In this document: one piece after another, positions 8,756 to 64,000 of the stretch
Position numbering within the stretch: position 1 is the stretch's first letter
Layout of the letters: every line of letters begins with the position of its first letter
Origin: Thermodesulfobacteriota bacterium
Lineage (GTDB): Bacteria; Desulfobacterota_D; UBA1144; Nemesobacterales; Nemesobacteraceae
Assembly (NCBI GenBank): GCA_965116075.1
Contig: OZ220467.1
Location: 1,857,067 to 1,921,066 of the forward strand
DNA: 64,000 bases
Direction of reading: 5' to 3'
Made by a program: the position numbers and the translations under genes
The notes under the pieces: generated by a model
Told to the model about the DNA's origin: nothing
The model's input: only the letters and a program-made list of their open reading frames with translations
The model's database searches: none

Positions 8756-9055
8756 GTGGAAAGTGCTGACTTCTACCAACTCAATTCGCACCGTTGGAAC
8801 AATTTTAACCCTGTAGCTCTCTACTCGGAAACAATTGACGATATTCAAACGCTTTTCGTTCTTGATGCGTATCACTCGGAAGTCTTTACTTACGACCTGA
8901 CTACTGACGACCGTGCTGGCGGTAGCTTCAGAATAGACAGTGTGGAAACAAGCGGGCATCAACGCTTTAGCGGTGTTACCTTAACCGCCGATGAAGACTA
9001 CTTCTATGTTTCTCATATCCAAAAAACGAGGCATTTGCGCTGTAGCGATTCTTGA
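8756..9055 (+). CDS. hypothetical ORF ending exactly at the MITE terminal repeat (possibly a truncated remnant)
   Basis: ORF only; its stop lies inside the MITE left TIR. Confidence 0.2.
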   Translation: MESADFYQLNSHRWNNFNPVALYSETIDDIQTLFVLDAYHSEVFTYDLTTDDRAGGSFRIDSVETSGHQRFSGVTLTADEDYFYVSHIQKTRHLRCSDS

Positions 9056-9501
9056 TGCAGGTTTCCTTTGATGATTGTGGAACCACTATGGGTTTATTTC
9101 TTTTGTAGATGGTGAATTTGTTATTAACTTGAGGTATTTACACTACAACGATTTTTGGGGCTATTTCCTTGAGGATGACCAGAAACAACATTAACTTGCT
9201 CTTATAGCAGAGGAGAAGATTCTGCTAGCAAATTATAATTTCAACCTATGAAGATACCTTTACAGTGACATTAAAAAATAAATAATATCATCAGGTTATT
9301 TGTTTTTTGGAGAATTTTTACAGAGGTTATATCAACCGATTTTAGTGTGGGGTGAAATTTCTGGGTTTTGGCTTACATTAGCCGATTTTAGGGCTTTTTG
9401 GGGGCTTTTTGCGGGGATTTCTGGGGTGAAAAGTTTTTTACCCCCCCCCCCCTCTAAAAATCCTTGATATGCATACATTTTTTGAACAGCGCAAATGCCT
9501 C
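9028..9501. mobile_element. MITE-like non-autonomous element (~474 bp) carrying both TIRs of the IS at 46583-48567
   Basis: Left end GAGGCATTTGCGCTGT (9028-9043); right end ACAGCGCAAATGCCTC (9486-9501), a perfect 16-bp inverted repeat. Interior 9300-9480 matches the IS right-end sequence (gtgaaattt..ggcttacattagccgattttaggg). Confidence 0.6.
9441..9452. repeat. homopolymeric C12 tract inside the MITE right-end module
   Basis: Twelve consecutive C. The master IS copy has only CCCC plus an interruption at the equivalent position (48508). Confidence 0.9.
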
Positions 9502-18583: not shown

Positions 18584-18968
18584 TTTAAGTCCTCCTTTAT
18601 CTTAAATCTTCTGCTGTGCAATATATCTATTACTGCTCAAACAGTTTCTACTTGAACCTAGTATCACCCCTAGTTCAGTCAACAAAATAGCCATTTTATT
18701 TAATCATATTTTCTCTTATACCGCAATTGAACTTGAAGAAAATACATACTTATCCACCCAAAACTTGTTTTTCGTAGAACTGATTCCTTGGTTTTCTATA
18801 TACATTTCCCCGTACCAAAGACAGTGTCAGTTTTTCTTGAATAGACAGTATGTCTGTCGAAAGATTTTGCCCGATATCCTAATATGGAACATCTTTGATC
18901 TGTATGTAATATTTTGAAAGCGTAGGTTGTTCGTTCTCTGTTAGTTGTTCGGAGGAATTCAAAGAAGT

Positions 18969-19053
18969 GCCCAGGGCCGGACTCGAACCGGCACGGGAAA
19001 AACTCCCGAGGGATTTTAAGTCCCTTGCGTCTACCAATTCCGCCACCCGGGCA
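18969..19053 (-). tRNA. tRNA-Leu (anticodon TAA), long variable arm, CCA not encoded
   Basis: Reverse complement gcccgggtggcggaattggtagacgc..ggacttaaaatccc..ggttcgagtccggccctgggca folds as a class II tRNA with anticodon loop cuUAAaa. Confidence 0.8.
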
Positions 19054-19077
19054 TCAGTCTTAACGCCAACCAAAATA

Positions 19078-19152
19078 TGGAGGCGGCGCCCGGATTCGAA
19101 CCGGGGTATAACGGTTTTGCAGACCGTCGCCTTACCTCTTGGCTACGCCGCC
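19078..19152 (-). tRNA. tRNA-Cys (anticodon GCA), CCA encoded
   Basis: Reverse complement ggcggcgtagccaagaggtaaggc..ctGCAaaacc..ggttcgaatccgggcgccgcctcca; 75 nt. Confidence 0.85.
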
Positions 19153-19294
19153 TAGAGTTGTAATAAAAAGATAGAGTGTACCAGAAAATTTTTTTTTGTG
19201 AACTTCTGGATAAAAACGAGTGCCGAATAATACAGATAATTTGACCAGAGATATTTAGCGGCAGTGACCGTGAATGGATTATTGCGTCCAAAGG

Positions 19295-19461
19295 CTGATA
19301 ATTGTGCGGAAATCAGCAGCGAATTGCGAAAATCAAGAAATCTGACCATCAGATTACTTAAACACCAATCAGCCCGAACTGAAACAGTGGTGAACATGTG
19401 TTTATAGGTCCTCATTACGTTAAAGCCGCTCCCCAAAAAACCCTACAGCGCAAATGCTTCC
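19295..19461. repeat. solo left-end (LE-A) copy of the IS at 46583, reverse orientation
   Basis: Reverse complement aligns along its length with 46583-46760 and 43054-43217, including the TIR (ACAGCGCAAATGC at 19445-19457). Confidence 0.6.
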
Positions 19462-19475
19462 TTTGTCGCTAGTCC

Positions 19476-19506
19476 TTGACTTATGTGAGGGGGGGGGGGG
19501 TAAAGT
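19476..19506 (+). promoter_or_regulatory. putative sigma-70 promoter with a G12 tract in the spacer: TTGACT, then 7 nt plus G12, then TAAAGT
   Basis: -35-like TTGACT at 19476-19481, -10-like TAAAGT at 19501-19506, 19-bp spacer containing the homopolymer. Roughly 95 nt upstream of the lipoprotein start codon. Confidence 0.45.
19489..19500. repeat. homopolymeric G12 tract
   Basis: Twelve consecutive G. Confidence 0.9.
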
Positions 19507-19601
19507 TAAAAGGCTAACTTAAGAATGAGGGTTTTATAACAAGGTTTTGCCAGATAAATATCCACTTTATAAATGGAACAACTTATAAGGGAGGTTTTAT
19601 T

Positions 19602-20759
19602 ATGAAGTTACGTAATTTATTAGTGATGTTGTTTCTGCTCACTGGAGCAGTTTTCTTTGTAGCTTGCGAGGGAAAAGACGGGAAAGACGGAGCGAGAGGG
19701 CCAGCAGGGCCAGCAGGTGAAAAGGGGGATAAGGGTGACAAAGGTGACAAAGGCGACCCCGGGCCAGCAGGCGCGGATGGCAGAGACCTAAACCCCACCG
19801 GTGATACTAGGTGTGATGTTAGTAATGGTATAGATGCCCCCACAGCAGTGCGAGAGATCGCAGGGACTATGGATGATGATGTTATTTGCGGAAATGATGG
19901 CGATAACGAAATAAGAGCGGGAGGGGGAGATGATACGGTTTACGGTGGAGATGGCAATGACAAGTTGTTAGGTGGAGATGGAGACGATACGCTTTATGGT
20001 GAAGATGGAAATGATCATTTTTTCTTTATAAATGAAGCCGGTGTTAATAAATTTGTTGGGGGTGCTGGTAAAGACCTAGTCTATTTTGCTCGTAATGTTG
20101 TAAACACAGGAACGTCTTCTGCAGGCATTTATAACAACCCTTCCGGTTCCCTAACTTCCAAAGATATAACCTTTGATCTCTCTTCTGGGAGTTGGGATGG
20201 GACTTCTATTGACACTGGATCATTCACTTTTGAAGGTATTGAGGATGTTATTAGCGGTGATGGTGACGACACTATTACCGGAAATGACGAATCTAACTAT
20301 CTCTATACATGGGATGGTGATGACACTATAAACGGCGGAGCTGGCAACGATTTGATTAATGGTGTGGGTGGTGACGATACGATAGACGGTGGTGCCGGCG
20401 ATGATATTTTAGTCGCATGGGATAATGGCAATGATACTCTTACTGGAGGCGCAGGCGCAGATATTTTTTATGCTCGATATGCGTCATCCCCTGACCTTGT
20501 AGTTATTAAGGATTTTGATACGGCAAACGACAAACTCTATTTCAGAAGTTTTCCAGCAGTATCAGGGAATAATAGAACCGTAACCGCCTCGGGAGGTAAG
20601 ATTTTGGTTGGAGGGAATGAATATTTTGAAATACATGATGCGAACGGTTCACCAGACAGCACAAAAGCAACAAATATTGCAGGCGACTCAACAAGATATC
20701 GGTTTGTAGCACATGAATTTTCAGGGGAAACAAGATTCTACACATTTACAGACGACTAA
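19602..20759 (+). CDS. lipoprotein with collagen-like GXY triple-helix repeats and RTX (hemolysin-type) calcium-binding repeats
   Basis: Signal peptide with lipobox-like FVAC; about 12 GXY triplets (GKDGKDGARGPAGPAGEKGDKGDKGDKGDPGPAGADG); repeated GGxGxD nonapeptides (GGDGNDKLLGGDGDDTLYGEDGND...). Confidence 0.75.
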   Translation: MKLRNLLVMLFLLTGAVFFVACEGKDGKDGARGPAGPAGEKGDKGDKGDKGDPGPAGADGRDLNPTGDTRCDVSNGIDAPTAVREIAGTMDDDVICGNDGDNEIRAGGGDDTVYGGDGNDKLLGGDGDDTLYGEDGNDHFFFINEAGVNKFVGGAGKDLVYFARNVVNTGTSSAGIYNNPSGSLTSKDITFDLSSGSWDGTSIDTGSFTFEGIEDVISGDGDDTITGNDESNYLYTWDGDDTINGGAGNDLINGVGGDDTIDGGAGDDILVAWDNGNDTLTGGAGADIFYARYASSPDLVVIKDFDTANDKLYFRSFPAVSGNNRTVTASGGKILVGGNEYFEIHDANGSPDSTKATNIAGDSTRYRFVAHEFSGETRFYTFTDD

Positions 20760-29635: not shown

Positions 29636-31099
29636 TCAAACGCGTCTTTTCAGAAAAACAACCGAGAATAGAACAGACACCATAAACAACAGATTAACCA
29701 ATGCACTTTGAGGCGAATGACCTGTACCAGCAATCGCGCATCCGTCATCGTCATCTTTAGCCGATTGAGTCACAGGTGGTGGATAAATACCAGAACCAAA
29801 AATGTGGCGTAGATTTAATGTGGGTATCGCCTTGAGAGATGGGTTCTCTTTAACAGCTTCGGATAGTATATTCACAACTTCAATATAACTTACTTTAAGC
29901 GAAGTACCGGGGACAATCTTCTCTTCAAGGTAGTTCTCATTTTCATCATCTTGAACTTCAGGGTTATCCCAGCGATAGGTAACCCCGTTAGCAGAGTATC
30001 CAGCTTGAGGTTCCTCGTTGTCTTCTCCTTCTACCAACTTCTTTCGAAACAGAGTCACTATCTTTTTGTCTTCGCCTTCTAGTTCTTTATCTTCTAACTC
30101 CAACGTGAGACCATTCAAATTGGGATCGTTTGCGTTAATAAACACAGTACCTTCTGAAGTTGCTGTCATGACGAAAAGATATATGTTTTTATGCTTGAAA
30201 ACTTCAGAGGTACTCAGACAAGCAAATGAACTACTTATCTCCGCAAAACTATCACTAGTGAATTTTGCTATACCCTGCGGAGTAGACAAGTCTAAAGTAC
30301 CAGCACCCTTCTGATCATTGATCAACTTGGAAATTCTAGCGCGCAGAGCTTGTTGATACGATCCAATGGAACTTTTTACATAACCTTTAAGCAGTTCTTC
30401 TGTTGGGTTCTTATATACATCCTCAGCGGTAACTGGTAGAGCTGGAAAAACAGAGCAGTCAGGTTTAGAAAAAGGGTTGTTTTCATGTAATTTTCCATCA
30501 TCTTTCCTATTCTCATGATCAAGACCTACTATGATCTTCATAGCGTCCCTAGCTGGTCCGAAAGTTATGCTAATTCCACAAGTTTGTCTCGTTTTACCAT
30601 CATATTTGTAATCTTCGCACTCAGTAGTATTACCTCCGGCTGACTCATTAATTAAAATTTGCAAAGCCTCTGCAGGAGTGTCCTTCACCTTCGTAGAATC
30701 TAACTTGTACCCAAACAGTTCAGGATATTTCGAGTGACTTAATACGGTTCCACCAGCATCCACTACAATCACATACATTTCATCGGTTTTATAAACTTCT
30801 TGTGTTCTGAAATCTCTTGCAATAACTGAAAGCACTTGATTTGCACTTCTGCCAGTCGATTTTATAAGGGAATCATAATGCTCCTTTACATGTGAAAGAA
30901 ATTCCTGAACATCACTTTCAACAGTAGGATCTACATCTTTAGCCCCTTCATCATCCATATCTCCAACATCCTTACCCCCAACATTGACAACATGAGCGGA
31001 TACTTCAGTGGAAATGAACAAGAAAACCACCCCCAACAGAAAAACCAGACTTAGAACTCCCGTGGGGCAAATATTCCTTACAGAACTATCACTTTTCAT
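29636..31099 (-). CDS. secreted/surface protein with two tandem Cache-like (sCache_2-type) domains and a C-terminal GCAIAG/TM helix/KRR sorting-signal-like tail
   Basis: N-terminal signal/anchor. Cache-like segments YVIVVDAGGTVLSHSKYPELFGYKLD and NIYLFVMTATSEGTVFINANDPNLNGL...VTYRWDNP. C-terminal ...KDDDDGCAIAGTGHSPQSALVNLLFMVSVLFSVVFLKRRV. Confidence 0.65.
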   Translation of the reverse strand: MKSDSSVRNICPTGVLSLVFLLGVVFLFISTEVSAHVVNVGGKDVGDMDDEGAKDVDPTVESDVQEFLSHVKEHYDSLIKSTGRSANQVLSVIARDFRTQEVYKTDEMYVIVVDAGGTVLSHSKYPELFGYKLDSTKVKDTPAEALQILINESAGGNTTECEDYKYDGKTRQTCGISITFGPARDAMKIIVGLDHENRKDDGKLHENNPFSKPDCSVFPALPVTAEDVYKNPTEELLKGYVKSSIGSYQQALRARISKLINDQKGAGTLDLSTPQGIAKFTSDSFAEISSSFACLSTSEVFKHKNIYLFVMTATSEGTVFINANDPNLNGLTLELEDKELEGEDKKIVTLFRKKLVEGEDNEEPQAGYSANGVTYRWDNPEVQDDENENYLEEKIVPGTSLKVSYIEVVNILSEAVKENPSLKAIPTLNLRHIFGSGIYPPPVTQSAKDDDDGCAIAGTGHSPQSALVNLLFMVSVLFSVVFLKRRV

Positions 31100-39313: not shown

Positions 39314-40474
39314 TTAGTTGTCTGTAAAAATGTAGGTTCTTGACGTTGCTGAGAAAGAAGCAGTAACAAACTTATATTTTGTTGGGTCGTTTGCAATACT
39401 AGTTGCTTTTGTGCTGTCTGGAGCACCATTAGCGTCGTGAAGCAGAAATGAATGGGTGTAAACACTAGGATCCCTCGCTACTATAATCTTGCCATTTTCA
39501 GCCCTTACTTCTCTCTCTCCACCGCCTTCTGTTGCTACGGGATAACCTATGGAATAGAGTTTGTCTTCTGTAAGGTTAAAGTCCTTGATAACATCCACCC
39601 CAGCATGGTAATGACGAGCAGTAAAGATGTCGGCACCTACTCTACCACGAAGAATATCATCTCCATCTCCACCGTTTATAATGTCAACACCATTACCGCC
39701 GACAAGGTGATCATCGCCAGCTTCGCCGTTTATAGTGTTACCACCATTTCCACCCCAAATATAGTTATCCCCGTTTGTTCCGGTCAGCATGTCATCGCCA
39801 TTACCACTATAAAAATCTTCAATATCTTCAAATATAACCTTGCCTAATTTCTCAAGAGGTTCAGAACCACCTTCAAAACTTCCAGAAGAAAGATCAAAAG
39901 TTATATTATTGTTGACTACGGAACCAGAATAAAAACCCGAAGAGGAGGCACGAGCCCCCTCTGCGGGTGCTTGCCTGAAATAAATTATGTCTTTATCCTC
40001 CCCACCGAACCACTTGTTCTCCCCTGACGCAGATAGAAGATAGAAATGATCTTGTCCATCTTCGCCGTAAAGCGTATCGTTATCATCTCCACCCATCAGC
40101 CTATCATTTCCCTTACCTGCATAAACAACATCATCACCAGCAAGCGTTCTTATATCATTGTCGCTATCATTTGCGCAGACGATATCGGCATCCTGTGTTC
40201 CTTCAATGCTTCTCATGCCAGGGAGTACATTTATCCCGTTACTCTTATCGCATCTCGGGTCGTTTTCAACGCCGTCGCCTTTGTCACCTTTATCGCCTTT
40301 CGCTCCGTCCTTTCCTGGATCACCTTTGTCCCCCTTTGGTCCCGCCGGTCCGCGTTCGCCTTGAGGCCCTTGCACTCCGTCTTTCCTCGCTGGCCCTCTC
40401 TCTCCCTCACAAGCTACAAAAAAAACTGCTCCAGTAAGCAGCAACAACATCACTAATAAACTACGTAACTTCAT
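39314..40474 (-). CDS. paralogous lipoprotein with collagen-like GXY repeats and RTX calcium-binding repeats
   Basis: N-terminus MKLRSLLVMLLLLTGAVFFVACEG, near-identical to the 19602 gene. GXY run (GERGPARKDGVQGPQGERGPAGPKGDKGDPGKDGAKGDKGDKGDG); GGxGxD repeats; shared C-terminal ...FTDN. Confidence 0.75.
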   Translation of the reverse strand: MKLRSLLVMLLLLTGAVFFVACEGERGPARKDGVQGPQGERGPAGPKGDKGDPGKDGAKGDKGDKGDGVENDPRCDKSNGINVLPGMRSIEGTQDADIVCANDSDNDIRTLAGDDVVYAGKGNDRLMGGDDNDTLYGEDGQDHFYLLSASGENKWFGGEDKDIIYFRQAPAEGARASSSGFYSGSVVNNNITFDLSSGSFEGGSEPLEKLGKVIFEDIEDFYSGNGDDMLTGTNGDNYIWGGNGGNTINGEAGDDHLVGGNGVDIINGGDGDDILRGRVGADIFTARHYHAGVDVIKDFNLTEDKLYSIGYPVATEGGGEREVRAENGKIIVARDPSVYTHSFLLHDANGAPDSTKATSIANDPTKYKFVTASFSATSRTYIFTDN

Positions 40475-40555
40475 ATTACAACCTCCCTTATAAGTTGTTC
40501 CATTTATCTGGCAAAACCTTGTTATAGAACCCTCATTCTTACAATTAGTCTTTTG

Positions 40556-40600
40556 ATTTTACCCCCCCCCCCAGGGCTTTCTAATTTTTTAGAGGCGTAA
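40556..40600 (-). promoter_or_regulatory. putative promoter with a G11 tract (minus strand: TTAGAA, then 6 nt plus G11, then TAAAAT)
   Basis: The minus-strand sequence downstream of the G tract is ~85% identical to the 19501-19601 5'UTR of the paralogous gene. Confidence 0.4.
40562..40572. repeat. homopolymeric C11 tract (G11 on the gene strand)
   Basis: Eleven consecutive C. Confidence 0.9.
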
Positions 40601-40899
40601 GTCGTTGATATTACCGAGTATATCCTTTCAAAGAGAGTTTTGCATCTTAGAGGTTGCCACTACGTCATGGAGAGAAATTAGAGACTCATTTGTCTTCCCT
40701 TTCTAGCTGACATGTAGAAGAATTAGGCTCGGTTTCAGTCCTTCGTAAGTTTTTTCTTATAACAAACACTTCTGAATTATAATCTGCGGAGTTGGATATG
40801 TAGGGAGAATATATCCAAGGTAGTACATTGTCATTTGGGGATTTGAGAAAACAGTGAAGTAATATTAGTACGTTATAATCCGGATATTCCAACAGAGAT

Positions 40900-43014
40900 A
40901 TTAAGTCACAATTCGGTTTCTTCGTTGTTAGATTTCGATCTGGACGTTACAAATTTAGTTCTGGCTATTTAATGTTTGTTATGGTATGGTGTAGATCATG
41001 AGTAGACAGATGTCTCAGGATAATAAGATTGATCTGCGCGCGATCACAGTACGTCCTACCTATGGGGAACAGGAGCGTCGTCACTGGGACCACTTAGTCA
41101 GACTACATCACTATCTTCCATTCCATCGCGTGTTCGGCAAGGGATTGCGTCATGTAGCGGAAGTTGGGTCGCGTTGGGTGGCGCTTATTGGTTGGCAGGC
41201 AGGCGCATTCAAGTTAGCGGCCCGAGACCGCTGGATTGGCTGGAGCGCCGAGCAGCAGTTTGGACGCTTGCATCTGATTGCCAACAATGTGCGGTTTGTC
41301 ATTCTGACACGGCAGCGGGTGGCGAACTTGGCATCCCGAGTGCTGGGTCTGAGTCTGAGGCGGCTGTCTTCGGACATGCAGACAGCGCACGGTTATCCAG
41401 TGTTTCTGGCTGAGACGTTCGTAGATATTTCACGTTTTAATGGTACTTGCTACCGGGCGGCCAACTGGCAGTCTTTCGGGCTAACGCGCGGGTTTGCCCG
41501 TGAGTCTGGAGGGTCTGCGCGGTGGCGCTATCATGGTCAACCCAAGGAGGTCTTCATGTTTAATCTCGTTGATAATGCTAAAGAAGTATTAAGTCAAGAA
41601 GAGTTACCACCAGAATGGACCGGTGGGGTTCGTAAGGAGCCTATGACGGCGCCACAGTTACGCAGTCTCAAAGATGTTCTAGGTAAGGTGCCTGAGTTCC
41701 GAAAGTCTCAAGGTAGACGCTATCCTCTTGTCACCGTGTTGGTTCTCGCTGTCGCCGCCCGTTTGGCTGGATACCGCGGGGTGTCCGCCATAGCGCAGTT
41801 CGCCCGACTACTTAGTCAGGAACAGCTTAAGGCCGTTGGAGCGTTCTACAGTCCCAGTAAGAAATGCTACACTGCGCCGGTAATTGCCACCTTCCATAAC
41901 ATCTTCGCAAAACTGCCACCCGACACGCTTGATAAAGCGCTGAACCTGTGGGAAGCCCGCAAGACCTCGCCCGCAGCGCCGGTGGCGATGGACAGCAAGA
42001 TGATTCGTGGCGCAGCCAAGCAGACTGAGGGTGGAATTAGAATGATGGTAGCTGCCCTCGAACATAACACCGGCGTGGTTCTCGGTCAACTAGCAATCAA
42101 AGAAAAGAGCAGTGAGATGCTAGTGGTACGCGACCTAGCCAATAAACTCGACATTGCTGATCGTACTGTCACTCTAGATGCGCTGCATGCCCAGCAGGAT
42201 ACGGCGCGCTGTCTGCTGGAAAATGGAGCCGACTATGTGATGACCGCCATCAAGAACAATCAAAGAAGGATCAGCAAGGAAATAAAGGGATTGGACTTTG
42301 ATGCTGTGCCAGGATGGACAACCGAAGATTATAAACATGGGAGGATTGAAGAACGGACCTGTTGGGTAGTAGACCTATCCGGTTCTGAGTGGGATGGACA
42401 TGTAGGCATGCACGGACGGCGTCAAGCCATACGCATAGTCCGCAAGCGCACTGAGAAGAAGACAGGTAAAACCAGTTGCGAGACTGTCTATGCTCTGACC
42501 TCACTTGGCCCAGAGCAGGCTGGAGCCAAGGAGTTACTTGCTCTGGTTCGCAACCACTGGCACATTGAGAACCGTCTGCATTATGTGCGTGACTTCACCT
42601 ACGATGAAGACCGTTGTCGGGTATCAAAAGGGTACTTACCGGAAAATCTTTCCTGTCTGAGCAACGTTGTCATCGCCATAGTGCGTTGTGAAGGTAGATT
42701 CAACTATCTGCCTGAAGCTAACCGACACTATGCCGCCCGGCCTCAGGAAGCTATTGAACTTATAATGAAGCCGTTGAACTGAACGGTCGCACTTTACTCA
42801 CAACCCCGCCGGATAGCCTGTGCACTGCTCAGGTCTGATACCCTACGCCTACTGGACGGACAAAGGCTGCGTACACTGTAAGATGAAGCCGAATGTACCC
42901 TTGTTTCTTGCTAAAACTCTCCATCTGAAGTCCAAATCACAATCCAAACACTCCAAAACATCTATCTACCCAACCCTATACAAAGTCCCCGCTACGAAAA
43001 CTGAATGGTCCTGA
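40900..43014 (+). mobile_element. ISAs1-family insertion sequence (approximate boundaries)
   Basis: Contains the ISAs1-type transposase ORF; its right boundary is placed where the conserved lipoprotein-promoter remnant (G10 at 43015) begins. Confidence 0.5.
40998..42782 (+). CDS. ISAs1-family transposase with an N-terminal Arg-rich extension (594 aa)
   Basis: C-terminal NHWHIENRLHYVRDFTYDEDRCRV signature of ISAs1 (H-repeat-associated) transposases; DDE core upstream. Confidence 0.8.
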   Translation: MSRQMSQDNKIDLRAITVRPTYGEQERRHWDHLVRLHHYLPFHRVFGKGLRHVAEVGSRWVALIGWQAGAFKLAARDRWIGWSAEQQFGRLHLIANNVRFVILTRQRVANLASRVLGLSLRRLSSDMQTAHGYPVFLAETFVDISRFNGTCYRAANWQSFGLTRGFARESGGSARWRYHGQPKEVFMFNLVDNAKEVLSQEELPPEWTGGVRKEPMTAPQLRSLKDVLGKVPEFRKSQGRRYPLVTVLVLAVAARLAGYRGVSAIAQFARLLSQEQLKAVGAFYSPSKKCYTAPVIATFHNIFAKLPPDTLDKALNLWEARKTSPAAPVAMDSKMIRGAAKQTEGGIRMMVAALEHNTGVVLGQLAIKEKSSEMLVVRDLANKLDIADRTVTLDALHAQQDTARCLLENGADYVMTAIKNNQRRISKEIKGLDFDAVPGWTTEDYKHGRIEERTCWVVDLSGSEWDGHVGMHGRRQAIRIVRKRTEKKTGKTSCETVYALTSLGPEQAGAKELLALVRNHWHIENRLHYVRDFTYDEDRCRVSKGYLPENLSCLSNVVIAIVRCEGRFNYLPEANRHYAARPQEAIELIMKPLN

Positions 43015-43024
43015 CCCCCCCCCC
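43015..43024. repeat. homopolymeric C10 tract in an orphan copy of the lipoprotein promoter module
   Basis: Reverse complement ...ctttctcgctagttcttgactttgtgag-G10 matches 19461-19500 (ctttgtcgctagtccttgacttatgtgag-G12). Confidence 0.9.
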
Positions 43025-43053
43025 TCACAAAGTCAAGAACTAGCGAGAAAGAA

Positions 43054-43217
43054 GGCATTTGCGCTGTAGGGTTTTTGGGAGTGGTTTTAGACGAATGAGG
43101 ACGTATGAACGCATGTTCAACACTGTTTCAGTTCGTACTGATTCGTATTTGAGCAATCTGATGGGCAGATTTCTTGATTTTCCCGCAATTTCCTGCTGAT
43201 TTCCGCACAATTATCAG
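43054..43217. repeat. solo left-end (LE-A) copy of the IS at 46583, forward orientation
   Basis: GGCATTTGCGCTGTAGGGTTTTTGGGAGTGGTTTTAGACG...CAATTATCAG aligns throughout with 46585-46749. Confidence 0.55.
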
Positions 43218-43256
43218 ATATATTTTCTGCGTGGTAAAATCAATACATTCCGTTCC

Positions 43257-44297
43257 ATGAAAAAAACAAATCCTCGGAAGATAAATATTCCTGAGAAAGA
43301 TATTTCATCCCTTGATCTGCCCTCTAGACCCAGAAGAAATCGCAAGTCGACTTCTGTGAGAAACCTAACTAGAGAAACCCTGTTGGCGGTGGGTGACCTC
43401 GTATATCCGCTTTTTATCCATACCAAAAACACAGACGATGAAATAGAATCAATGCCGGGATGCAAGAGATGGAGTATTGATGGACTTGTAAAGGAAGCGA
43501 AGGAGGCATTTAGTGTCGGTATTGGAGCAGTGATGCTATTTCCCGTAATTGAGAATTCCTACAAATCCCCCCTAGCCGAAGAGTGTTATAATCCGAGCGG
43601 GCTTGTCCCAAAAGCGGTTTGCGCGTTGAAAAAAGAGGTTCCTAAAATAACGGTAATAACGGATGTCGCTCTTGACCCTTATTCAAGCGAAGGTCACGAT
43701 GGAGTGGTGTCTCTTCGCGGAGAGATACTCAATGACGTCACAGTGGAGGTGCTCTGCAAGCAGGCTCTGTGCCATGCGACGGCCGGAGCAGATATCGTAG
43801 CTCCGAGCGATATGATGGATGGTCGTGTTGGCGCTCTAAGAGAAGTTCTTGACGAAAATAACTACACAAACGTTTCGATTATGTCTTATACGGCCAAGTA
43901 CGCATCCGCTTTTTACGGACCTTTCCGCGGGGCGCTTGACTCCGAGCCCAAAGGTGGGGACAAGATGACGTACCAAATGCACCCTGCAAACTCCAGAGAA
44001 TCTATCCGAGAATTACTAGCAGATGAGCAAGAGGGCGCAGACGTGGTTATGGTAAAGCCTGCAGGATATTATCTGGATCTAGTTTATATGTTTCGTGAAA
44101 ACAGTGATCTTCCTGTAGCAGCGTATCAGGTAAGCGGAGAGTATCTTATGATAAAGGCTGCGGCAGAATCAGGATGGCTTGATGAGGAAAAAGTGATTAT
44201 TGAGAGTCTTTTGGGAATAAAAAGAGCAGGGGCTGACATAATAATCACCTATTTTGCTAAAAAAGCGGCCAATCTTTTGGCAAGACCAAATGGTTAG
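43257..44297 (+). CDS. hemB: porphobilinogen synthase (delta-aminolevulinic acid dehydratase)
   Basis: RPRRNRKSTSVRNLTRETLLAVGDLVYPLFI N-terminus and active-site region (VKPAG, YQVSGEY). Confidence 0.9.
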   Translation: MKKTNPRKINIPEKDISSLDLPSRPRRNRKSTSVRNLTRETLLAVGDLVYPLFIHTKNTDDEIESMPGCKRWSIDGLVKEAKEAFSVGIGAVMLFPVIENSYKSPLAEECYNPSGLVPKAVCALKKEVPKITVITDVALDPYSSEGHDGVVSLRGEILNDVTVEVLCKQALCHATAGADIVAPSDMMDGRVGALREVLDENNYTNVSIMSYTAKYASAFYGPFRGALDSEPKGGDKMTYQMHPANSRESIRELLADEQEGADVVMVKPAGYYLDLVYMFRENSDLPVAAYQVSGEYLMIKAAAESGWLDEEKVIIESLLGIKRAGADIIITYFAKKAANLLARPNG

Positions 44298-45343: not shown

Positions 45344-46500
45344 TTAACCTCCTAGTGTTCCGTCAAGCAATGATTTTGGGTAGAGAGACTTAAGTCTGCA
45401 ACGGGCATCGGCAACCGACATACGCCAGTTCACACCACGCTGGCTTGCGTTGACGCGTTGCGACCACGCCGTTACTTCTGCCCGCAACTCGTCTAAGTCC
45501 CCGATCCGTAGACCCTTCAGACACTGCCGCGTCAGACAACTCAACTCGCACTCCGCCACGTTCAGCCAACTCGCGTGCTTTGGGGTGTACTGGAACTTGA
45601 TGCGCTGTCTCAACCGCCGTGCCCGCTCCGGCTCAAAAGCCTCGTATAACGCTCCCAGCGTGTGCGTGTTGAGGTTGTCCAGCACCAGCGTGATCATCTC
45701 GCAGTTTGCATAGCGATTCTCCAGCAGAGCCGCCACCTCCTCCGCCCAGTCCAATTTAGTGCGCCGCTCTCGCACCGTCACCGTGCGCCAACCTGCCAGC
45801 GGTTCACAGAACAGGAACACCAAGGCCATGCCGGCCCGTTGATACTTATAGTCCACACGGTGCGGATGCTCCGTGGTTGCAGGCAATGGCTGGCGGGTTT
45901 CCCCCACCATCTGTAGTCCATGCAAAACACTGGCCGCCGCTCATCGTAAGGCTCCTCGTAGGTCGACAGAACATCTTCCATGGCCGCCACATACTCCCCG
46001 TCCGCCTTCGGCGGAATCACCCAGTACTGCAGGTAGCGTCCCGCTATACCGTTTTTTTTAATGTCTTGTTGACGGTTTCGTGGCTGATCAATTCACAGAT
46101 GCCGGTCTCAACCGCCTCGCTTGCCAGCAGACGTAGCGACCATTGACCGCAACCGGCCGGTGGCGACCCCAGCCGTAGTGCGATCAGCGCGGCTTCCTGC
46201 CGCCCGTCCAAAAGCTTCGGTGGTCAGGTGGACGGGTTCTGTTGCCGCCCGTTGAGGGCCAACTCAAAACCTTCCAGCACACAACATTTACGCACGTTCG
46301 CGACGGTGCGCTCCTGACAACCGTAGGCCTCCGCGACCTGGTGGTCGCACCAGTTCGGCCCGTCCGCATCAACTTGTAGCAGAATACGCGCCCTGCACGC
46401 TTTCTGACTGCTACCCTTGAGTTTCTTGATGACCTCCCGACATGTCTTGCGTTCGGCCTCTGACAGGCGCACAATGTACTTCTTCATGGTTACTTCTCCT
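45344..46500 (-). pseudogene. IS630-family (Tc1/mariner-like) transposase split across three frames
   Basis: HTH N-terminal part 46224-46500 (...IVRLSEAERKTCREVIKK...). DDE part at 45344-45925 (VLDNLNTHT...YTPKHASWLNVAECE). Intervening piece 45778-46020 in a third frame. Confidence 0.65.
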
Positions 46501-46582
46501 TTGTTATAGAAAGATGGCTTGGGACACAGATCCCTCGCCTTAAAACACATTATACACAAAATGTTGATCTTGACGCAACACT

Positions 46583-48567
46583 GAGGCATTTGCGCTGTAA
46601 GGTTTTTGAGAGTGATTTTAGACGTAATGAGGTCATATGAACACATGTTCAGAACCGTTTCAGTTTGTACTGATTCGTATTTGAACAATCTGACGGTCAG
46701 ATTCCTTGATTTTCGCAGGATATGATGCTGATTTTCGCCCAATTATCAGCCTTTAGACGCAACTATACATTCACGGCCACTACCGCTAAATTCCTCTGGT
46801 CAAATTATCTGTAGTATTCGGAGAAAAACCCTATCCAGCCCGAGGAGCACACCCAGAAACAAGGGACCTCATCTTATCAGCCCTTCCAGCCTTTATGTGT
46901 CCAATGGCTAACGCCATCATCACACTCAACGCTAAGCCTGTACGAGCAGTCATTTTTGCCTTGCCTCTGATAAAATGCCTCTCTAACTTAAAACTATTGT
47001 CAACCCTTGAGTTTATACGTTCTATAGAATTCCTAAGCTTATACTCCCGCTCCCAAGTTACTGAACCATACGGAGTCGGGGTAAAAATACGAGGGTCCTT
47101 GTCCAAAGGAACTCGTATGGATAAGCCATATTCACTGTTCTTACGACCCGCATTTTTGTGACACTTCTCCCTGCCTACGCAATTCAGGTTATGCGCTGCC
47201 GCAGGACAACGAAACTTCAAAGTACCTCGCTCCTCTTCATATCCCCAACCCACCAACTTACTTTCTACCTTGGTTATAGGACAACGACACCAAACCTCGC
47301 CCTTCTCTGTGTAGAATATGTTGTTAATATCTTCTCTCAAAGGCCGCATAATCTTTTGCCCAGCAATATAGTTCTGATTCTCCAACTCCACCCTCCACAT
47401 CTCTCGGATACCAATTATAGGGTCAGTTCCATATTCGTTCCAAAACTTCTTCTTCAATGACTCACTGTCAAGACCCTTGTCTGCGCTGAAATATTCGCAT
47501 CGCTCCACCAACTCAGGGTTCTGCGCAAACAACTTGTCTATCATCCGATTCAACTCCTTATATTCTGATACAGATGCCTTTGTAAGACTCATCGCAACCG
47601 GTATCTCATACTTGGTATCGGCAATTACATGCAACTTGTAACCAAACCATCTCTTTACGCTTTTCCATGCCTTGCCTGTAGCAGAGTTAAACCCAGACGT
47701 AGTATGTACTCCCCAGTCCGCATCAGGATCGGATGTCTCTCCTGTCTTATTGCTCTTTCTCCCTGTGGAATTACTCTCTATAGACTTACCGTCATATCCT
47801 AGATGCTTCCCAAAATCCGGAAGCGATTCTCTCAACTCTCCTCCCATTCTATCCATCATTTTCGAAATCAGACCGTCGCGTTGCTCCAACTTCGCTACGT
47901 TTGATAGAAACCGAGAGAAATTGTGACTGCTAGGCGCCGTACTGTAGATAGGAAATTGTTTAACCACAACTTTAGGTCTCCCGCCGTTTTCATCCTGCTC
48001 AAGACTGTACTTGTCAATATGTTGTATGGGAATGGGACAGAATCCACATCTATTAAGTAGTTCAGAATTACGGTTCAGTTCCCGTATCAGTGATTCTATG
48101 GATTCGTGCTGAAACACTACGCCAGCAATCGTCGCCCTCCACATTGGTTCTACCGGATACTCATTACGCCCGTTCTTGCGCATAGCTTTCAAAGCCCTAA
48201 TGATATCTTCATCAGGCAAAGCATCCAAAACCAACTCAAGACGGTTGAGGTCTGAAATCTCATCAATTTGTTCCCAAGAGAATGGTAAATACTTTTTTTG
48301 TAGCAACTGTTTGCTCCTTATAGAGAGAATGTGTGAATGTTAGGAAGAATAATAACTGATATAGAATGTAAAGCAAGTAATATCAGCAAGTTATTTATCT
48401 CTTTCCCAAGTTTTTCAGGGAGAAATCGGCAACTGGTTTATGTGGGGTGAAATTTGTGGTTTTTGGCTTACATTAGCCGATTTTAGGGCTTTTTTGGGGT
48501 AAAAAGTTTTTTACCCCTTCTAAAAACCCTTGATATACATACATCTTTTGGACAGCGCAAATGCCTC
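46583..48567 (-). mobile_element. intact insertion sequence (~1985 bp) with perfect 16-bp TIRs and one DDE transposase ORF; master copy of the dispersed LE/RE repeats
   Basis: GAGGCATTTGCGCTGT at 46583-46598 and ACAGCGCAAATGCCTC at 48552-48567. LE interior matches the 43054 and 19295 copies; RE interior matches 9300-9501 and 31255-31400. Confidence 0.7.
46831..48306 (-). CDS. DDE transposase, IS4/IS5 superfamily (family unassigned)
   Basis: 491 aa. DDE region (GYKLHVIADTKYEIPVAM...) and C-terminal E(x6)R/K signature (SIERINSRVDNSFKLER) typical of the IS4/IS5 superfamily. Confidence 0.8.
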   Translation of the reverse strand: MLQKKYLPFSWEQIDEISDLNRLELVLDALPDEDIIRALKAMRKNGRNEYPVEPMWRATIAGVVFQHESIESLIRELNRNSELLNRCGFCPIPIQHIDKYSLEQDENGGRPKVVVKQFPIYSTAPSSHNFSRFLSNVAKLEQRDGLISKMMDRMGGELRESLPDFGKHLGYDGKSIESNSTGRKSNKTGETSDPDADWGVHTTSGFNSATGKAWKSVKRWFGYKLHVIADTKYEIPVAMSLTKASVSEYKELNRMIDKLFAQNPELVERCEYFSADKGLDSESLKKKFWNEYGTDPIIGIREMWRVELENQNYIAGQKIMRPLREDINNIFYTEKGEVWCRCPITKVESKLVGWGYEEERGTLKFRCPAAAHNLNCVGREKCHKNAGRKNSEYGLSIRVPLDKDPRIFTPTPYGSVTWEREYKLRNSIERINSRVDNSFKLERHFIRGKAKMTARTGLALSVMMALAIGHIKAGRADKMRSLVSGCAPRAG

Positions 48568-48742: not shown

Positions 48743-50236
48743 ATGAAGTTTGTTGGATGCTTTCAAAGGGCTCATTCTATAAGAATCCTGACTCTATTTT
48801 TCGTAGGTGTCATGTTATTATTTACATTCGCTCATACTACTAAAGTATTAGCTCATGATCCTAGCGATGCCGATGATAAGAAAGCTTCAGACGTAGATGT
48901 TACAAGTAAGGCAGATGTTGAGGGATTTCTCTCACATGTAGTGGAACATTATAATTCTCTATCGGAATCGTCGTTAAAGGAAAGAAGTGAAGACTCATCA
49001 ACATCGCGACAGTTTGCACCTGCCGCCAGAGAGTTAAGGACCAATCCGGTCTACAAAGACCTTGACAGGGGAATGTATGTAATTTTAATAAACTCTGGTG
49101 GAACTGTATTAAATCACTCGGCATATCCCGAACTTTTTGGGTACAAGTTTGATATGACTTCTATTGAAGGGGATGACAATGAAGGAGAGGACACGACTCC
49201 TGCTGAAGCTTTACAAGTTTTAATTACGGAGTCAACTGGAGGTAATACTAAGTGCAAAGATTATAAATATGGTGATAAAACGAGATGGGCCTGCGGAACC
49301 CGTGTAAATTACGGACGTTTCGAGGATGTTATAACGGCCGTAGTAGGTCTTCATCATGAGAATAAGAAAGATGATGGGAAGTTACATGAAAACAACCCTT
49401 TTTCTGAACCTGACTGCCCTGGTTTTCTAGAGTTAAAAACCACTGCTAAGAAGGTACATATGGATCCGACGGAGGCCAACCTTAAAGCTTTTGTAAGAGA
49501 ATCTATTGAATCGCTTAACCACGCTGTAGCTAAAGGTATGTCCGATCTAGTAGGTAAGCAGACCTCAGACTTCTTGTCTACTGAGCAGAAACGATTGGAT
49601 TTTGCTGAGAAAATCGCTGTTAAGTTAACTAGTTTAGCTGGTTGTGCTAATGTTGAAGAATTCAAGCATGAAAACATATATCTTTTCGCTATGACGGCAA
49701 CTCCAGAAGGTACTGTGTTTGTTAACGGAAACAATGCCGATTTGAATGGTCTTACACTAGAGTTAGAAGATGGAGAGTTAGACGGTGATGACAAAAAAAT
49801 AGTGACCCTGTTTCGAAATGCGTTGATACCTCAAAATAGAAAGGAAAAGAAACCCAAAGTTGGAGATTCCGCTATAGTCGAATACCGATGGAGCGACCCT
49901 GCTAAAAACGGTACTGATCTGATTAAGAACTGGCTTGAAAATAACAGTGTTCCCGGCACTACGCCTAAGAAAAGTTATATTCAAGTGACGGATATAACAT
50001 CTGGAATTGACGAAAAGATTCGGAAGATTCCAGGACTTGGTCAGTTACTGGACGGCATAACTCTCAAGATCGTTGGTTCTGGGATTTATCCAACCCCAAC
50101 AACTCCAGCGACTAAAGATGACGATGACGGATGCGCGATTGCTGGAACAGACCATTCATCTCAAAACGCTTTGGTTAATCTATTGTTGATAACATCTGTT
50201 CTGTTCTCAATTGTTTTTTTGAGAAGACGCGCTTAA
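48743..50236 (+). CDS. paralogous secreted/surface protein with tandem Cache-like domains and C-terminal GCAIAG/TM helix/RRR tail
   Basis: Shares blocks with 29636-31099 (GGNT.C.DYKY, HENxKDDGKLHENNPFS.PDC, ENIYLF.MTAT.EGTVF, LNGLTLELED.EL.G.DKKIVTLFR) and the C-terminal KDDDDGCAIAGTDHSSQNALVNLLLITSVLFSIVFLRRRA. Confidence 0.65.
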   Translation: MKFVGCFQRAHSIRILTLFFVGVMLLFTFAHTTKVLAHDPSDADDKKASDVDVTSKADVEGFLSHVVEHYNSLSESSLKERSEDSSTSRQFAPAARELRTNPVYKDLDRGMYVILINSGGTVLNHSAYPELFGYKFDMTSIEGDDNEGEDTTPAEALQVLITESTGGNTKCKDYKYGDKTRWACGTRVNYGRFEDVITAVVGLHHENKKDDGKLHENNPFSEPDCPGFLELKTTAKKVHMDPTEANLKAFVRESIESLNHAVAKGMSDLVGKQTSDFLSTEQKRLDFAEKIAVKLTSLAGCANVEEFKHENIYLFAMTATPEGTVFVNGNNADLNGLTLELEDGELDGDDKKIVTLFRNALIPQNRKEKKPKVGDSAIVEYRWSDPAKNGTDLIKNWLENNSVPGTTPKKSYIQVTDITSGIDEKIRKIPGLGQLLDGITLKIVGSGIYPTPTTPATKDDDDGCAIAGTDHSSQNALVNLLLITSVLFSIVFLRRRA

Positions 50237-61560: not shown

Positions 61561-62757
61561 CTATGTTCTGTAGTCGGAATTTATTGATACATATTCGTGA
61601 CTCAGATCACTTGTTAATACTGAATATTGCTCTTTTCCTTGTCCAAGACTCAATGTGACAGAAAAAGATGGTTTAGCGAACACATGATCAAATGTAGATT
61701 CAGGTTTTGACTTAACTCCATTGGAAAAAACTTCACAATCATCGAAATAAAGTTTTATTTTTTCCACGGAAACATCCACTCCCGCTCTTCCCGCAGCTGC
61801 GATTACCCTTCCCCAGTTTGCATCTTCTCCGTAAAAAGCGGTCTTGACAAGTTGTGAATTCGCTATGGTTTTTGCTATTTTACGCGCGTCTTCCGTAGTT
61901 GCGGCTTCTGTTATATTGATCCTTACAACCTTTGTCGCCCCTTCTCCATCACGCACTATCATCTCAGCGATTTCCTCGAATAAAGCGCAAAGCGTTTCTG
62001 TAAACCCAGGGTAATGCCGACTTTGCTCCGTGATTTCAGGGTTCCCAAGAACCCCGTTTGCAAGAACAAAGACAGAATCATTTGTGGAAGTATCGCCATC
62101 AACCGTTATTGAGTTAAAAGATATGTCTGCTGCATGACGAAGCGCTTTAGAGAGAGCTGAATTTTCAATGTTAACATCGGTAATCACAAAACATAGCATG
62201 GTGGCCATGTCAGGACATATCATTCCAGCTCCCTTGCCAATTGCCACCAAAGAAGCGGTTTTTTCACCAATATTCAACTTTTTCACCGCGTATTTAGGAA
62301 AAGCGTCTGTAGTCATAATCGCTTCTGCAACATCTGCGATATTGTCCTCTCCAAGACCATTTACGAGTCCGGCGATAGCTTTTTTAATTTTTTCCGTAGG
62401 TAATTTCTCTCCTATCACCCCAGTTGACGAAGGGATTACGAGAGACTGGTCTATGCCAAGTTCTTTTGCAACCTCACCAGCCACCACCACCGAGTCTTTA
62501 TAACCCTCACCGCCTGTACACGCATTCGCGTTGACACTATTTACAACTATCGCTTGACAGAAACCTCTGGCCGTTCGTTGTTGTCCTATAACCACAGGAG
62601 CAGCCTTTATAAAGTTTTTTGTAAATATGGCAGATACACGGGCAGGAACGGTTGAAAATATCAGAGCGAGATCCTTTTTCCCGTTTTCTCTGAGACCTGC
62701 GGATAAAGCGCTTAGAAGAAAACCTGATGGATTTTTCATGTTTCTAATTCCGTACAA
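61561..62757 (-). CDS. argJ: bifunctional glutamate N-acetyltransferase / amino-acid acetyltransferase ArgJ
   Basis: Self-cleavage site ATMLCFVITD; 398 aa. Confidence 0.9.
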   Translation of the reverse strand: MYGIRNMKNPSGFLLSALSAGLRENGKKDLALIFSTVPARVSAIFTKNFIKAAPVVIGQQRTARGFCQAIVVNSVNANACTGGEGYKDSVVVAGEVAKELGIDQSLVIPSSTGVIGEKLPTEKIKKAIAGLVNGLGEDNIADVAEAIMTTDAFPKYAVKKLNIGEKTASLVAIGKGAGMICPDMATMLCFVITDVNIENSALSKALRHAADISFNSITVDGDTSTNDSVFVLANGVLGNPEITEQSRHYPGFTETLCALFEEIAEMIVRDGEGATKVVRINITEAATTEDARKIAKTIANSQLVKTAFYGEDANWGRVIAAAGRAGVDVSVEKIKLYFDDCEVFSNGVKSKPESTFDHVFAKPSFSVTLSLGQGKEQYSVLTSDLSHEYVSINSDYRT

Positions 62758-63130
62758 TCCTGGTCAGTTGTAATTATTTCTAGAAGAATTTTTAGTGAGG
62801 GTGCTCCAGCGTATCAAACATGAGATGTTTTTTATACACAAGATTGAATATATTCAGAAAGCAGGGCATTTACGATGTCCAACATATAATAATGATTTGA
62901 TATGGGACAAAAATCTCTCACATCAAGATTCTAGTAGAAACTGGCTAATCCCCTAGAGAAATCAAAATCTTATCTCAAACACAAATTAGTTATGGGAATC
63001 AACTTAGCCGCAACTTAAATAAGTAGCAAACCAAAGGAGTCAAAACTGAGCCAAAAAATCGTTATAACGCAAATAACTTGTAAATACTTTAGTTCAGATT
63101 GTAAGAATTATTTATTTCTCAAAGCATCTC

Positions 63131-63994
63131 TTAAGATTTTTTACCGAGGTTAACCTTGGAAAGACTAACCCCTTTCGCCTTTTTCTCAGCCCAAGATAAA
63201 GCACCTTTCGTATTTGACCAGTTTTCCGCGTTATGGGAGGCATAAACAATAGCCTCTTCCGGTGAACTAGGTGTATATCGTGCGGGCAGATCCTCTGGCA
63301 ATTGTGTCAAAAACTTTGGGACAAAGGGGTTCTCTTCCAACGCCTTATTAATAGCCTTATTGGCACGTGAAGAAGCCCCCTCTTTTCTAAATAGTAAAAG
63401 AGCCATGTTCCAACACCATTCGCTACAATACGGTTCTTCGTGAAACTTTAACAGTTTTTCAGCTTCAGATAGATCATCAAGAGCAAACAATTTAGAGACT
63501 AGAAAGAAACGCATCCCTTGGTTATCGTTAGGGTTTAGTTCAAGCATATGTCTCACAAGGGCAAGTGACTTTTCTCTCTCCCCTGCCCGCCAGATGCATT
63601 GGGAAAGACCTTCAAGAGCCCTCATGTAGGGACGCGTCTCTAATATCCCCCAGAAAAATCCGGCATGCTCGGTAAAAGCGTCAGAACCCAAATCAAGTTC
63701 TATAGCGTTTTTCCCTGCTACCACTCCGTGTTTTAAAAAGTCTATTCTCTCAGCAAGATCACCGGATTCCTCAGCAAGAATCACCCAAGCGTCCGCGCAG
63801 AGGTCTGAAATATCAAGCGCTTTTTTTGCCAGAAAGATTCTCTCATACATGCACATGGCGTCCCATGCGTCGTAAACGATATTCTGCGCTTCTTTAAGTC
63901 GAGAAAGCCTGATAGCATCTGGCTCTATACAATCCTCATCATCGCCAGCAAGAAAAAATGAACTCTCCACTACCCAAGACAATAGGGATCTCAT
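63131..63994 (-). CDS. hypothetical helical-repeat protein (287 aa)
   Basis: ORF with consistent codon usage; no recognisable catalytic motif. Confidence 0.4.
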   Translation of the reverse strand: MRSLLSWVVESSFFLAGDDEDCIEPDAIRLSRLKEAQNIVYDAWDAMCMYERIFLAKKALDISDLCADAWVILAEESGDLAERIDFLKHGVVAGKNAIELDLGSDAFTEHAGFFWGILETRPYMRALEGLSQCIWRAGEREKSLALVRHMLELNPNDNQGMRFFLVSKLFALDDLSEAEKLLKFHEEPYCSEWCWNMALLLFRKEGASSRANKAINKALEENPFVPKFLTQLPEDLPARYTPSSPEEAIVYASHNAENWSNTKGALSWAEKKAKGVSLSKVNLGKKS

Positions 63995-64000
63995 AGAATC

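Follow-up and report, generated by a model that had tools for sequence, protein, structure and literature searches.

Poly-G tracts between predicted promoter hexamers of a collagen/RTX lipoprotein family in Thermodesulfobacteriota: a putative per-gene transcriptional switch

We analysed a 64,000-nt stretch of DNA (the window; 43% GC) around a predicted promoter at 19476-19506 (+), in which twelve consecutive G residues lie between the -35 and -10 hexamers of a lipoprotein gene. Comparison with homologous copies supports the predicted promoter architecture, its conservation, its restriction to one gene family, differences in tract length between homologous copies and the predicted nature of the product. 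We consider it likely that the G tract is a slippage-prone spacer in a per-gene promoter switch or volume control of the porA, tp0126 or Vlp type. We infer that the hexamers would be a promoter in use, that tract length would change frequently within the population and that length would set expression.

In the proposed mechanism, a sigma-70-type promoter (TTGACT / TAAAGT) would drive the surface lipoprotein gene with G12 as the variable part of its spacer, and each of about 40 family genes would have its own copy of the promoter cassette. During replication, G residues would be gained or lost by slipped-strand mispairing, and the -35/-10 spacing would change with them. A spacing of 17 nt would be reached with G10 in this lineage (now 18-20 nt) and with G11 in the sister lineage (now 15 nt). 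Independent switching or tuning of transcription at each gene would then give cells with different combinations of collagen/RTX lipoproteins.

Promoter layout, conservation and tract length

The features of the window and the intact promoters of the family are collected in Table 1. The first-pass annotation had reported TTGACT, G12 and TAAAGT with a 19-nt spacer at the focal site, and its coordinates were exact on re-reading of the sequence. A generic promoter scan allowing spacers of 16-18 nt left the site uncalled because the 19-nt spacer exceeds the permitted range. The focal homopolymer, longer than the roughly 8 nt that characterise promoters of the porA, tp0126 and vlp type, lies between -35 and -10 hexamers that are predicted and conserved. 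The leader palindrome TCCATTTATAAATGGA (16 bp; window 19560-19578) is found in most lineage-1 paralog leaders (L081, L082, L083b, L085a), is imperfect in the focal gene, is deleted in the 40474 paralog and is absent from lineage 2; it could be an operator. The leader RNA folded at -6.4 kcal/mol with no covariation support. An Rfam search returned two tRNAs and nothing else; tRNA-Leu(taa) and tRNA-Cys(gca) are located at 18967-19152 (-), 70 bp past the solo IS end next to the focal promoter.

Table 1. Features of the window and intact family promoters used for comparison. Positions refer to the window.
Feature	Position	Strand	Detail
Predicted -35 hexamer TTGACT	19476-19481	+	Sequence; consensus match 5/6
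Spacer, 19 nt	19482-19500	+	Sequence; tatgtga (19482-19488) + G12 (19489-19500)
Predicted -10 hexamer TAAAGT	19501-19506	+	Sequence; abuts G12 without gap
5' leader, 95 nt	19507-19601	+	Conserved among paralogs; contains imperfect copy of palindrome
RBS GGGAGG	19589-19594	+	In focal leader; ATG at 19602
Lipoprotein gene (focal), 385 aa	19602-20759	+	Signal peptide with lipobox Cys22, collagen-like GXY stretch, RTX beta-roll; Pfam
Paralogous lipoprotein gene (P0031), 386 aa	39314-40474	-	Homology to focal protein, 54% identical
Split promoter, downstream half	40556-40572	-	G11 (40562-40572) + -10 TAAAAT (40556-40561); TTAGAA from IS end 17 nt upstream
ISAs1-family element, 2,442 bp	40573-43014	+	594-aa transposase at 40998-42782
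Split promoter, upstream half	43015-43036	-	Sequence; -35 TTGACT (43031-43036), ttgtga, G10 (43015-43024)
Solo R_A end	43052-43217	-	Between split promoter and hemB (43257-44297; HemB by Pfam)
Complete IS1182/IS5-like element	46583-48567	-	16-bp inverted repeats GAGGCATTTGCGCTGT, 6-bp direct repeat AACACT, transposase 46831-48306
Solo left end R_A of IS1182/IS5-like element	19223-19460	+	83-87% identical to 46583-46821 (end of complete IS) and 43053-43217
MITE-like element, 474 bp	9028-9501	tract -	Perfect 16-bp inverted repeats GAGGCATTTGCGCTGT as in IS; tract 9441-9452
Tract G12	9441-9452 (C12 on +)	-	In MITE-like element
Tract G12	19489-19500	+	Focal promoter
Tract G11	40562-40572	-	Downstream half of split promoter
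Tract G10	43015-43024	-	Upstream half of split promoter
Intact promoter, lineage 1, window	19489		N7 + G12; spacer 19 nt
Intact promoter, lineage 1, L081			N6 + G12; spacer 18 nt
Intact promoter, lineage 1, L082			N7 + G12; spacer 19 nt
Intact promoter, lineage 1, L083b			N7 + G12; spacer 19 nt
Intact promoter, lineage 1, L084			N6 + G14; spacer 20 nt
Intact promoter, lineage 1, L085a			N6 + G12; spacer 18 nt
Intact promoter, lineage 1, L085b			N6 + G14; spacer 20 nt
Intact promoter, lineage 1, L086			N7 + G12; spacer 19 nt
Intact promoters, lineage 2, L001, L002, L087a, L087b			TTGAC(T/A)-N6-G9-TAGAAT; spacer 15 nt

Homologs were selected by protein similarity, ignoring the tract, from contigs of ERZ24894574, from ERZ26693861 and from the MAG OZ242002.1. 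The first of these represents a close relative, which shares a 2.3-kb core segment with window 61671-64000 at 99.8% identity. The comparison covered twelve intact promoters, drawn from four assemblies and two lineages, the window's own genome being represented by the window promoters. Scanning metagenomes for the conserved gene-start pattern produced no matches, and a scan of the genome contigs gave mostly collagen-repeat matches, with L001 and L002 as the only genuine relatives. The layout TTGAC(T/A)-N6/7-Gn-TA(A/G)A(A/C/G)T was shared by all twelve promoters, so that the earlier reading of hexamers placed around a G tract now extends, as predicted hexamers plus tract, to 12/12 intact promoters in two lineages. 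The tract is present, or was present before IS insertion, in 14 of 14 sampled family genes, and TA(A/G)A(A/C/G)T follows it directly in 14 of 14 promoter-side copies. Because the DNA outside this core is unalignable between lineages 1 and 2, the motif is, as judged by comparison, the phylogenetic footprint of a predicted sigma-70-type core promoter with a homopolymer spacer.

Long G/C runs in the window are far beyond chance. The G9 pattern gave 13 overlapping matches compared to 0.12 expected from shuffles, and there are four runs of 10-12 bp and none of 7-9 bp. Across 180 kb of lineage-1 DNA, run lengths were bimodal, with 126 runs of 5 bp, 15 of 6 bp, two of 7 bp, a gap at 8-9 bp and 14 runs of 10-14 bp. 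The lipoprotein family owns 13 of these 14 long tracts, namely eight in intact promoters, four at IS junctions and one in a coding region.

The tract itself is G12 in six of the eight lineage-1 promoters and G14 in the other two, and G9 in all four lineage-2 promoters. No intact promoter (0/12) has a spacing of 16-17 nt, which, like the uniformity of tract length, counts against the switch; the observed values are 18-20 nt in lineage 1 and 15 nt in lineage 2. Length is near-uniform within a genome, and G12 occurs with both N6 and N7, leaving the N6/N7 difference uncompensated. Uniform length regardless of N6/N7 suggests a preferred length intrinsic to the tract rather than selection on spacing; in Campylobacter jejuni, a preferred poly-G length is set by mutational bias. 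The same uniformity would also be expected if the tract were a fixed promoter element, either a regulator site or a rigid A-form-like spacer, with the differences between paralogs reflecting slow drift, and the absence of promoters at the canonical 17 nt would be odd if 17 nt were the ON state. We consider this explanation unlikely, since the tract changes from 9 to 12 G between lineages despite conserved hexamers, G14 variants exist, junction copies range from 10 to 13 G, and runs of at least nine G are unstable by nature. In addition, a metagenome consensus would anyway show the modal, mostly OFF, state of each locus.

The comparison of tract lengths was confined to paralogs, which carry 9, 12 or 14 G, and to junction copies at 95% identity, where lengths are 11 vs 12 at one junction and 10 vs 13 at the other; a difference of one residue from assembly to assembly may be an error in the homopolymer consensus. 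A G12 tract was also observed within a family lipoprotein gene of L084 (9943-9954), where the protein is truncated at 273 aa with its RTX region out of frame, and G11 or G14 would bring back the RTX frame. Either this coding tract is a putative site of translational phase variation or its length is a consensus error; read in the former way, it would be a further hint of contingency tracts in the family. In the related MAG, a C11 run (L001 5725-5735) lies 170 bp upstream of a G9 promoter, and a search for an associated gene found no clear one.

Insertion elements at the promoter tracts

The first-pass annotation had described one and the same module as recurring at 40562 and 43015. Re-examination revised this: the two tracts are, from their flanking sequences, the halves of one predicted promoter that was split in its G tract by an insertion, with the 40562 tract sharing the downstream flank only and the 43015 tract the upstream flank only. 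The 194 bp upstream of the focal tract are 87% identical to 43025-43218, the focal downstream sequence is ~70% identical to 40561 and below, and both homologies break off at the tract because the 2,442-bp insertion lies there. The native -35 of the downstream half has been replaced by the IS end. Joined without the element, the flanks restore the family consensus, …GCTAGTTCTTGACTTTGTGA-Gn-TAAAATCAAAAGA… (cf. L084). We dropped an interpretation of the tract as the junction of two homology blocks, as the ISAs1 insertion accounts for both breakpoints.

The inserted element encodes an ISAs1-type DDE transposase, identified by NCBIfam NF033564 (198 bits compared to a cutoff of 70) and by the Pfam families DruA, DDE_Tnp_1_assoc and DDE_Tnp_1; its N-terminal domain is DruA-like. 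The GC content of the element is 50-59% compared to 43% for the window. Its ends are (C)AGGGC... and ...GTCCTG, the terminal sequences CAGGGCTTTCTAATTTT and CAGGACCATTCAGTTTT agree at ~11/17 positions, and one complete copy only was found. Inverted repeats at 40980-40996 and 42964-42980 were set aside as the IS boundary, given that the 95% identity to L083 reaches the tract. The tracts on its two sides, G11 and G10, are consistent with a duplication of ~10 bp of target sequence within the G tract. ISAs1 elements make duplications of 8-10 bp; a literature search for published ISAs1 duplication lengths found none. Junctions of this type at window 40573-43014, L083 1-1456 and L085 20812-21137 carry G tracts in all three sets. 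The left junction copies, which are 95% identical, have G12 (L083) and G11 (window), and the right junction copies, also 95% identical, have G13 (L085) and G10 (window). With flanks this similar, the three junction sets may descend from one insertion.

A second family of elements lies upstream of the promoters. The complete IS1182/IS5-like element is the source of the repeat ends R_A and R_C, and the terminal inverted repeat of R_A, GAAGCATTTGCGCTGT (minus strand, 19445-19460), faces the focal promoter. The upstream flank that had been counted as part of the recurring module is such a solo IS1182/IS5-like end and lies outside the switch. The shared 14-mer ACAGCGCAAATGCC was ruled out as a regulator site, being the IS terminal inverted repeat. 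The IS terminal 14/16-mer occurs nine times in the window compared to 0.3 expected (9030, 9486, 19445, 21153, 29313, 31441, 43054, 48552 and 62865), mostly as intergenic solo or MITE ends. IS or MITE ends adjoin most family promoters at NTTTCT, just upstream of CGCTAGTCCTTGACT (window 19445-19475 and 43037-43067; L085 9383-9861; L081, L084 and L086), and these positions suggest a hot spot for insertion some 17 bp ahead of the -35. At L085 9407-9861, a MITE with a clean 6-bp duplication, ATTTCT, lies beside an older IS end.

Other repeats and elements were noted. The L085 gene at 16948 is seemingly promoterless, two IS66-type elements in its 5' leader (L085 11850-16947, flanked by the 8-bp duplication GAGCAACT) parting it from the G14 promoter L085b. 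An IS630-like transposase (HTH_23 + DDE_3) is distributed over two ORFs at window 45344-46742, and the insertion of the IS1182/IS5-like element apparently took place immediately upstream of this transposase. Two paralogous genes of ~490 aa with a weak dCache match (29636-31099 and 48743-50236; 69% DNA identity) have paralogous upstream repeat fragments.

With mobile elements so close to the tracts, we examined the explanation that the tracts are neutral by-products of these elements or of genome-wide G-run expansion, the IS ends carrying the module around. An ISAs1-family element sitting in a tract, with G10 and G11 on either side, fits this explanation, as do the IS and MITE ends beside most promoters. 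The MITE-like element in the window fits it too. Its G12, a fourth tract in the window that had gone unlisted, lies where the parent IS end (~48520) has only G4 within the GGGGTAAAAA/TTTTTACCCC hairpin, and is, on this comparison, an independent homopolymer expansion and not a lipoprotein promoter. Unrelated to the family, it counts against the switch in that long G runs can arise without this function. We nevertheless hold the by-product explanation to be improbable. The tract is also found in promoters with no IS nearby (L083b, L001, L002, L087) and always lies exactly between conserved hexamers, and the absence of intermediate runs of 8-9 bp from 180 kb disfavours general G-run expansion.

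The lipoprotein family

The proposed promoter switch would act on a gene for a predicted lipoprotein whose surface location is presumed. The focal protein begins with MKLRNLLVMLFLLTGAVFFVAC followed by EG, its lipoprotein signal peptide ending at the lipobox, and in an alignment of 46 sequences Cys22 is invariant and Ala21 is at least 90% conserved. Signal peptide and lipobox with invariant cysteine are those of a bacterial lipoprotein. Pfam PF00353 (RTX repeats) matches the protein with E = 2e-27. The AlphaFold model has a mean pLDDT of 86.7 and forms a beta-roll, with values above 90 from about residue 70 to residue 385; the collagen-like part is without structure in this monomer model. In a Foldseek search with the model, the best PDB matches were CyaA RTX blocks. 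The modelled presence of an RTX beta-roll in the focal protein can be stated with confidence.

At least 36 protein clusters of the family were counted in the 2,386,527-bp genome of the window, where we estimate roughly 40 genes, and at least 29 clusters in the related 1.98-Mb Thermodesulfobacteriota MAG OZ242002.1 (HemB 86% identical). Four proteins of the window, HemB, RpoN, the TonB-dependent receptor and the second paralog (P0031), have exact matches in the 2,386,527-bp genome. The first-pass annotation had proposed an undescribed surface lipoprotein family, and this stands in substance, the family being larger than had been noted. No curated family in Pfam or NCBIfam covers the protein, the matches being collagen and RTX repeats alone, no NCBIfam model scored above its cutoff, and no account of collagen/RTX lipoproteins with poly-G promoters as a family turned up in full-text literature searches. 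The focal lipoprotein is missing from a 15-billion-protein collection (best match 61%), which holds exact copies of other proteins from the window's genome, the second paralog included; the focal gene may possibly have gone uncalled there. Separate look-ups by exact protein gave no match for either window lipoprotein or for HemB.

Identity among nine paralogs follows a gradient, with mean pairwise values of ~0.8-0.87 in the leader and signal peptide and 0.4-0.7 in the mature part. A comparison of L083 1-1658 with window 40385-42026 revealed 95% identity from the IS across the tract to ~190 bp into the gene, followed by ~70%; the downstream neighbours of this gene differ between L083 and the window. 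The mosaic lipoprotein genes suggest, at the level of sequence, recombination or gene conversion among paralogs. Such mosaicism, with identity falling from 95% to ~70% at ~190 bp past the tract, would also fit a tract that initiates recombination, comparable to the G-quadruplex upstream of Neisseria pilE, and promotes gene conversion among paralogs instead of controlling transcription. This is very improbable: the site of the tract between the two hexamers is conserved with single-base precision, silent promoterless cassettes are absent and every gene is served by a promoter of its own, and a single run of G9-G14 cannot form a canonical three-tetrad quadruplex.

Scope of the proposed switch and comparison with known systems

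Long homopolymers are error-prone and all lineage-2 tracts are G9, a possible platform ceiling, but a sequencing or assembly artefact is scarcely credible for internal tracts with both flanks conserved, seen in four independent assemblies at all lengths from 10 to 14; the uncertainty concerns exact tract length only, and the presence of the tract is secure. The artefact, by-product and G-quadruplex explanations are all weaker than the slippage-prone promoter spacer.

Taken further, the results allow a broader picture, which as a whole we put forward tentatively and regard as possible rather than probable. In it, an uncultured, small-genome, IS-rich Thermodesulfobacteriota lineage would carry a contingency system of ~40 genes, with a poly-G promoter switch at each gene and some coding switches as well. 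Two IS families would repeatedly target the switches, one within the tract and one at NTTTCT ahead of the -35, their insertions locking, unlocking and shuffling promoters. Among promoter-homopolymer switch families the system would rank as the largest known, and it would lie outside the classical pathogens; its existence would imply that a host, phage or predator exerts strong diversifying pressure on the lineage. Homopolymer promoter switches typify host-adapted pathogens, including Neisseria, Haemophilus, Treponema and Mycoplasma. If the picture is true, ~2% of a 2.4-Mb genome would be given to some 40 individually switchable surface lipoproteins, which would suggest that the lifestyle of this uncultured lineage is host-, phage- or predator-facing in a way that has gone unrecognised. 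It would also offer a large natural system for studying combinatorial phase variation, and a case of mobile elements acting directly on the switch. The kind of system is already known; what would be notable here is its scale and the phylum.

Classical RTX proteins have no N-terminal signal peptide and are exported by type I secretion, for which they carry a C-terminal secretion signal. Like the CyaA RTX blocks and serralysin C-terminal domains, the focal protein has Ca-binding nonapeptide repeats in a beta-roll, as indicated by Pfam, AlphaFold and Foldseek. It differs from them in carrying a lipoprotein signal peptide, contrary to type I secretion without one, and a collagen-like stalk.

At the promoter, T. 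pallidum tp0126 and N. meningitidis porA carry poly-G in the -35/-10 spacer, for which 17 nt is optimal (PMC7864442). They share with the present promoters a poly-G tract between the hexamers of an outer-surface protein gene, but are single genes with ~8-11 G, whereas here the family has 40 members and a spacing of 15 or 18-20 nt, never 17. In T. pallidum tpr subfamily II (tprE, tprG, tprJ), promoter poly-G of variable length gates transcription (PMC7864442). These are likewise paralogous surface-protein genes, each with promoter poly-G; in contrast, the tprL tract overlaps the -10 and leaves spacing unaffected, and the tpr proteins are a small beta-barrel family and not lipoproteins.

In M. 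hyorhinis, every vlp lipoprotein gene has a promoter homopolymer in which indels switch transcription (PMC10502178). Pfam and NCBIfam gave no homology to Vlp or mycoplasma lipoproteins, so the family is an analogue and not a member. The Vlp system has poly-A and few genes, compared to poly-G and ~40 genes here, and its proteins are unrelated in sequence to the collagen-like and RTX beta-roll proteins of this Gram-negative Thermodesulfobacteriota host. Switching has been demonstrated for Vlp, whereas here it is proposed from sequence. The likeness lies in a multigene set of surface lipoproteins with many paralogs, each with its own homopolymer promoter, a conserved 5' cassette including the signal peptide, and a divergent, repeat-rich mature exterior. 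By this analogy, the Vlp family would be the closest match in organisation.
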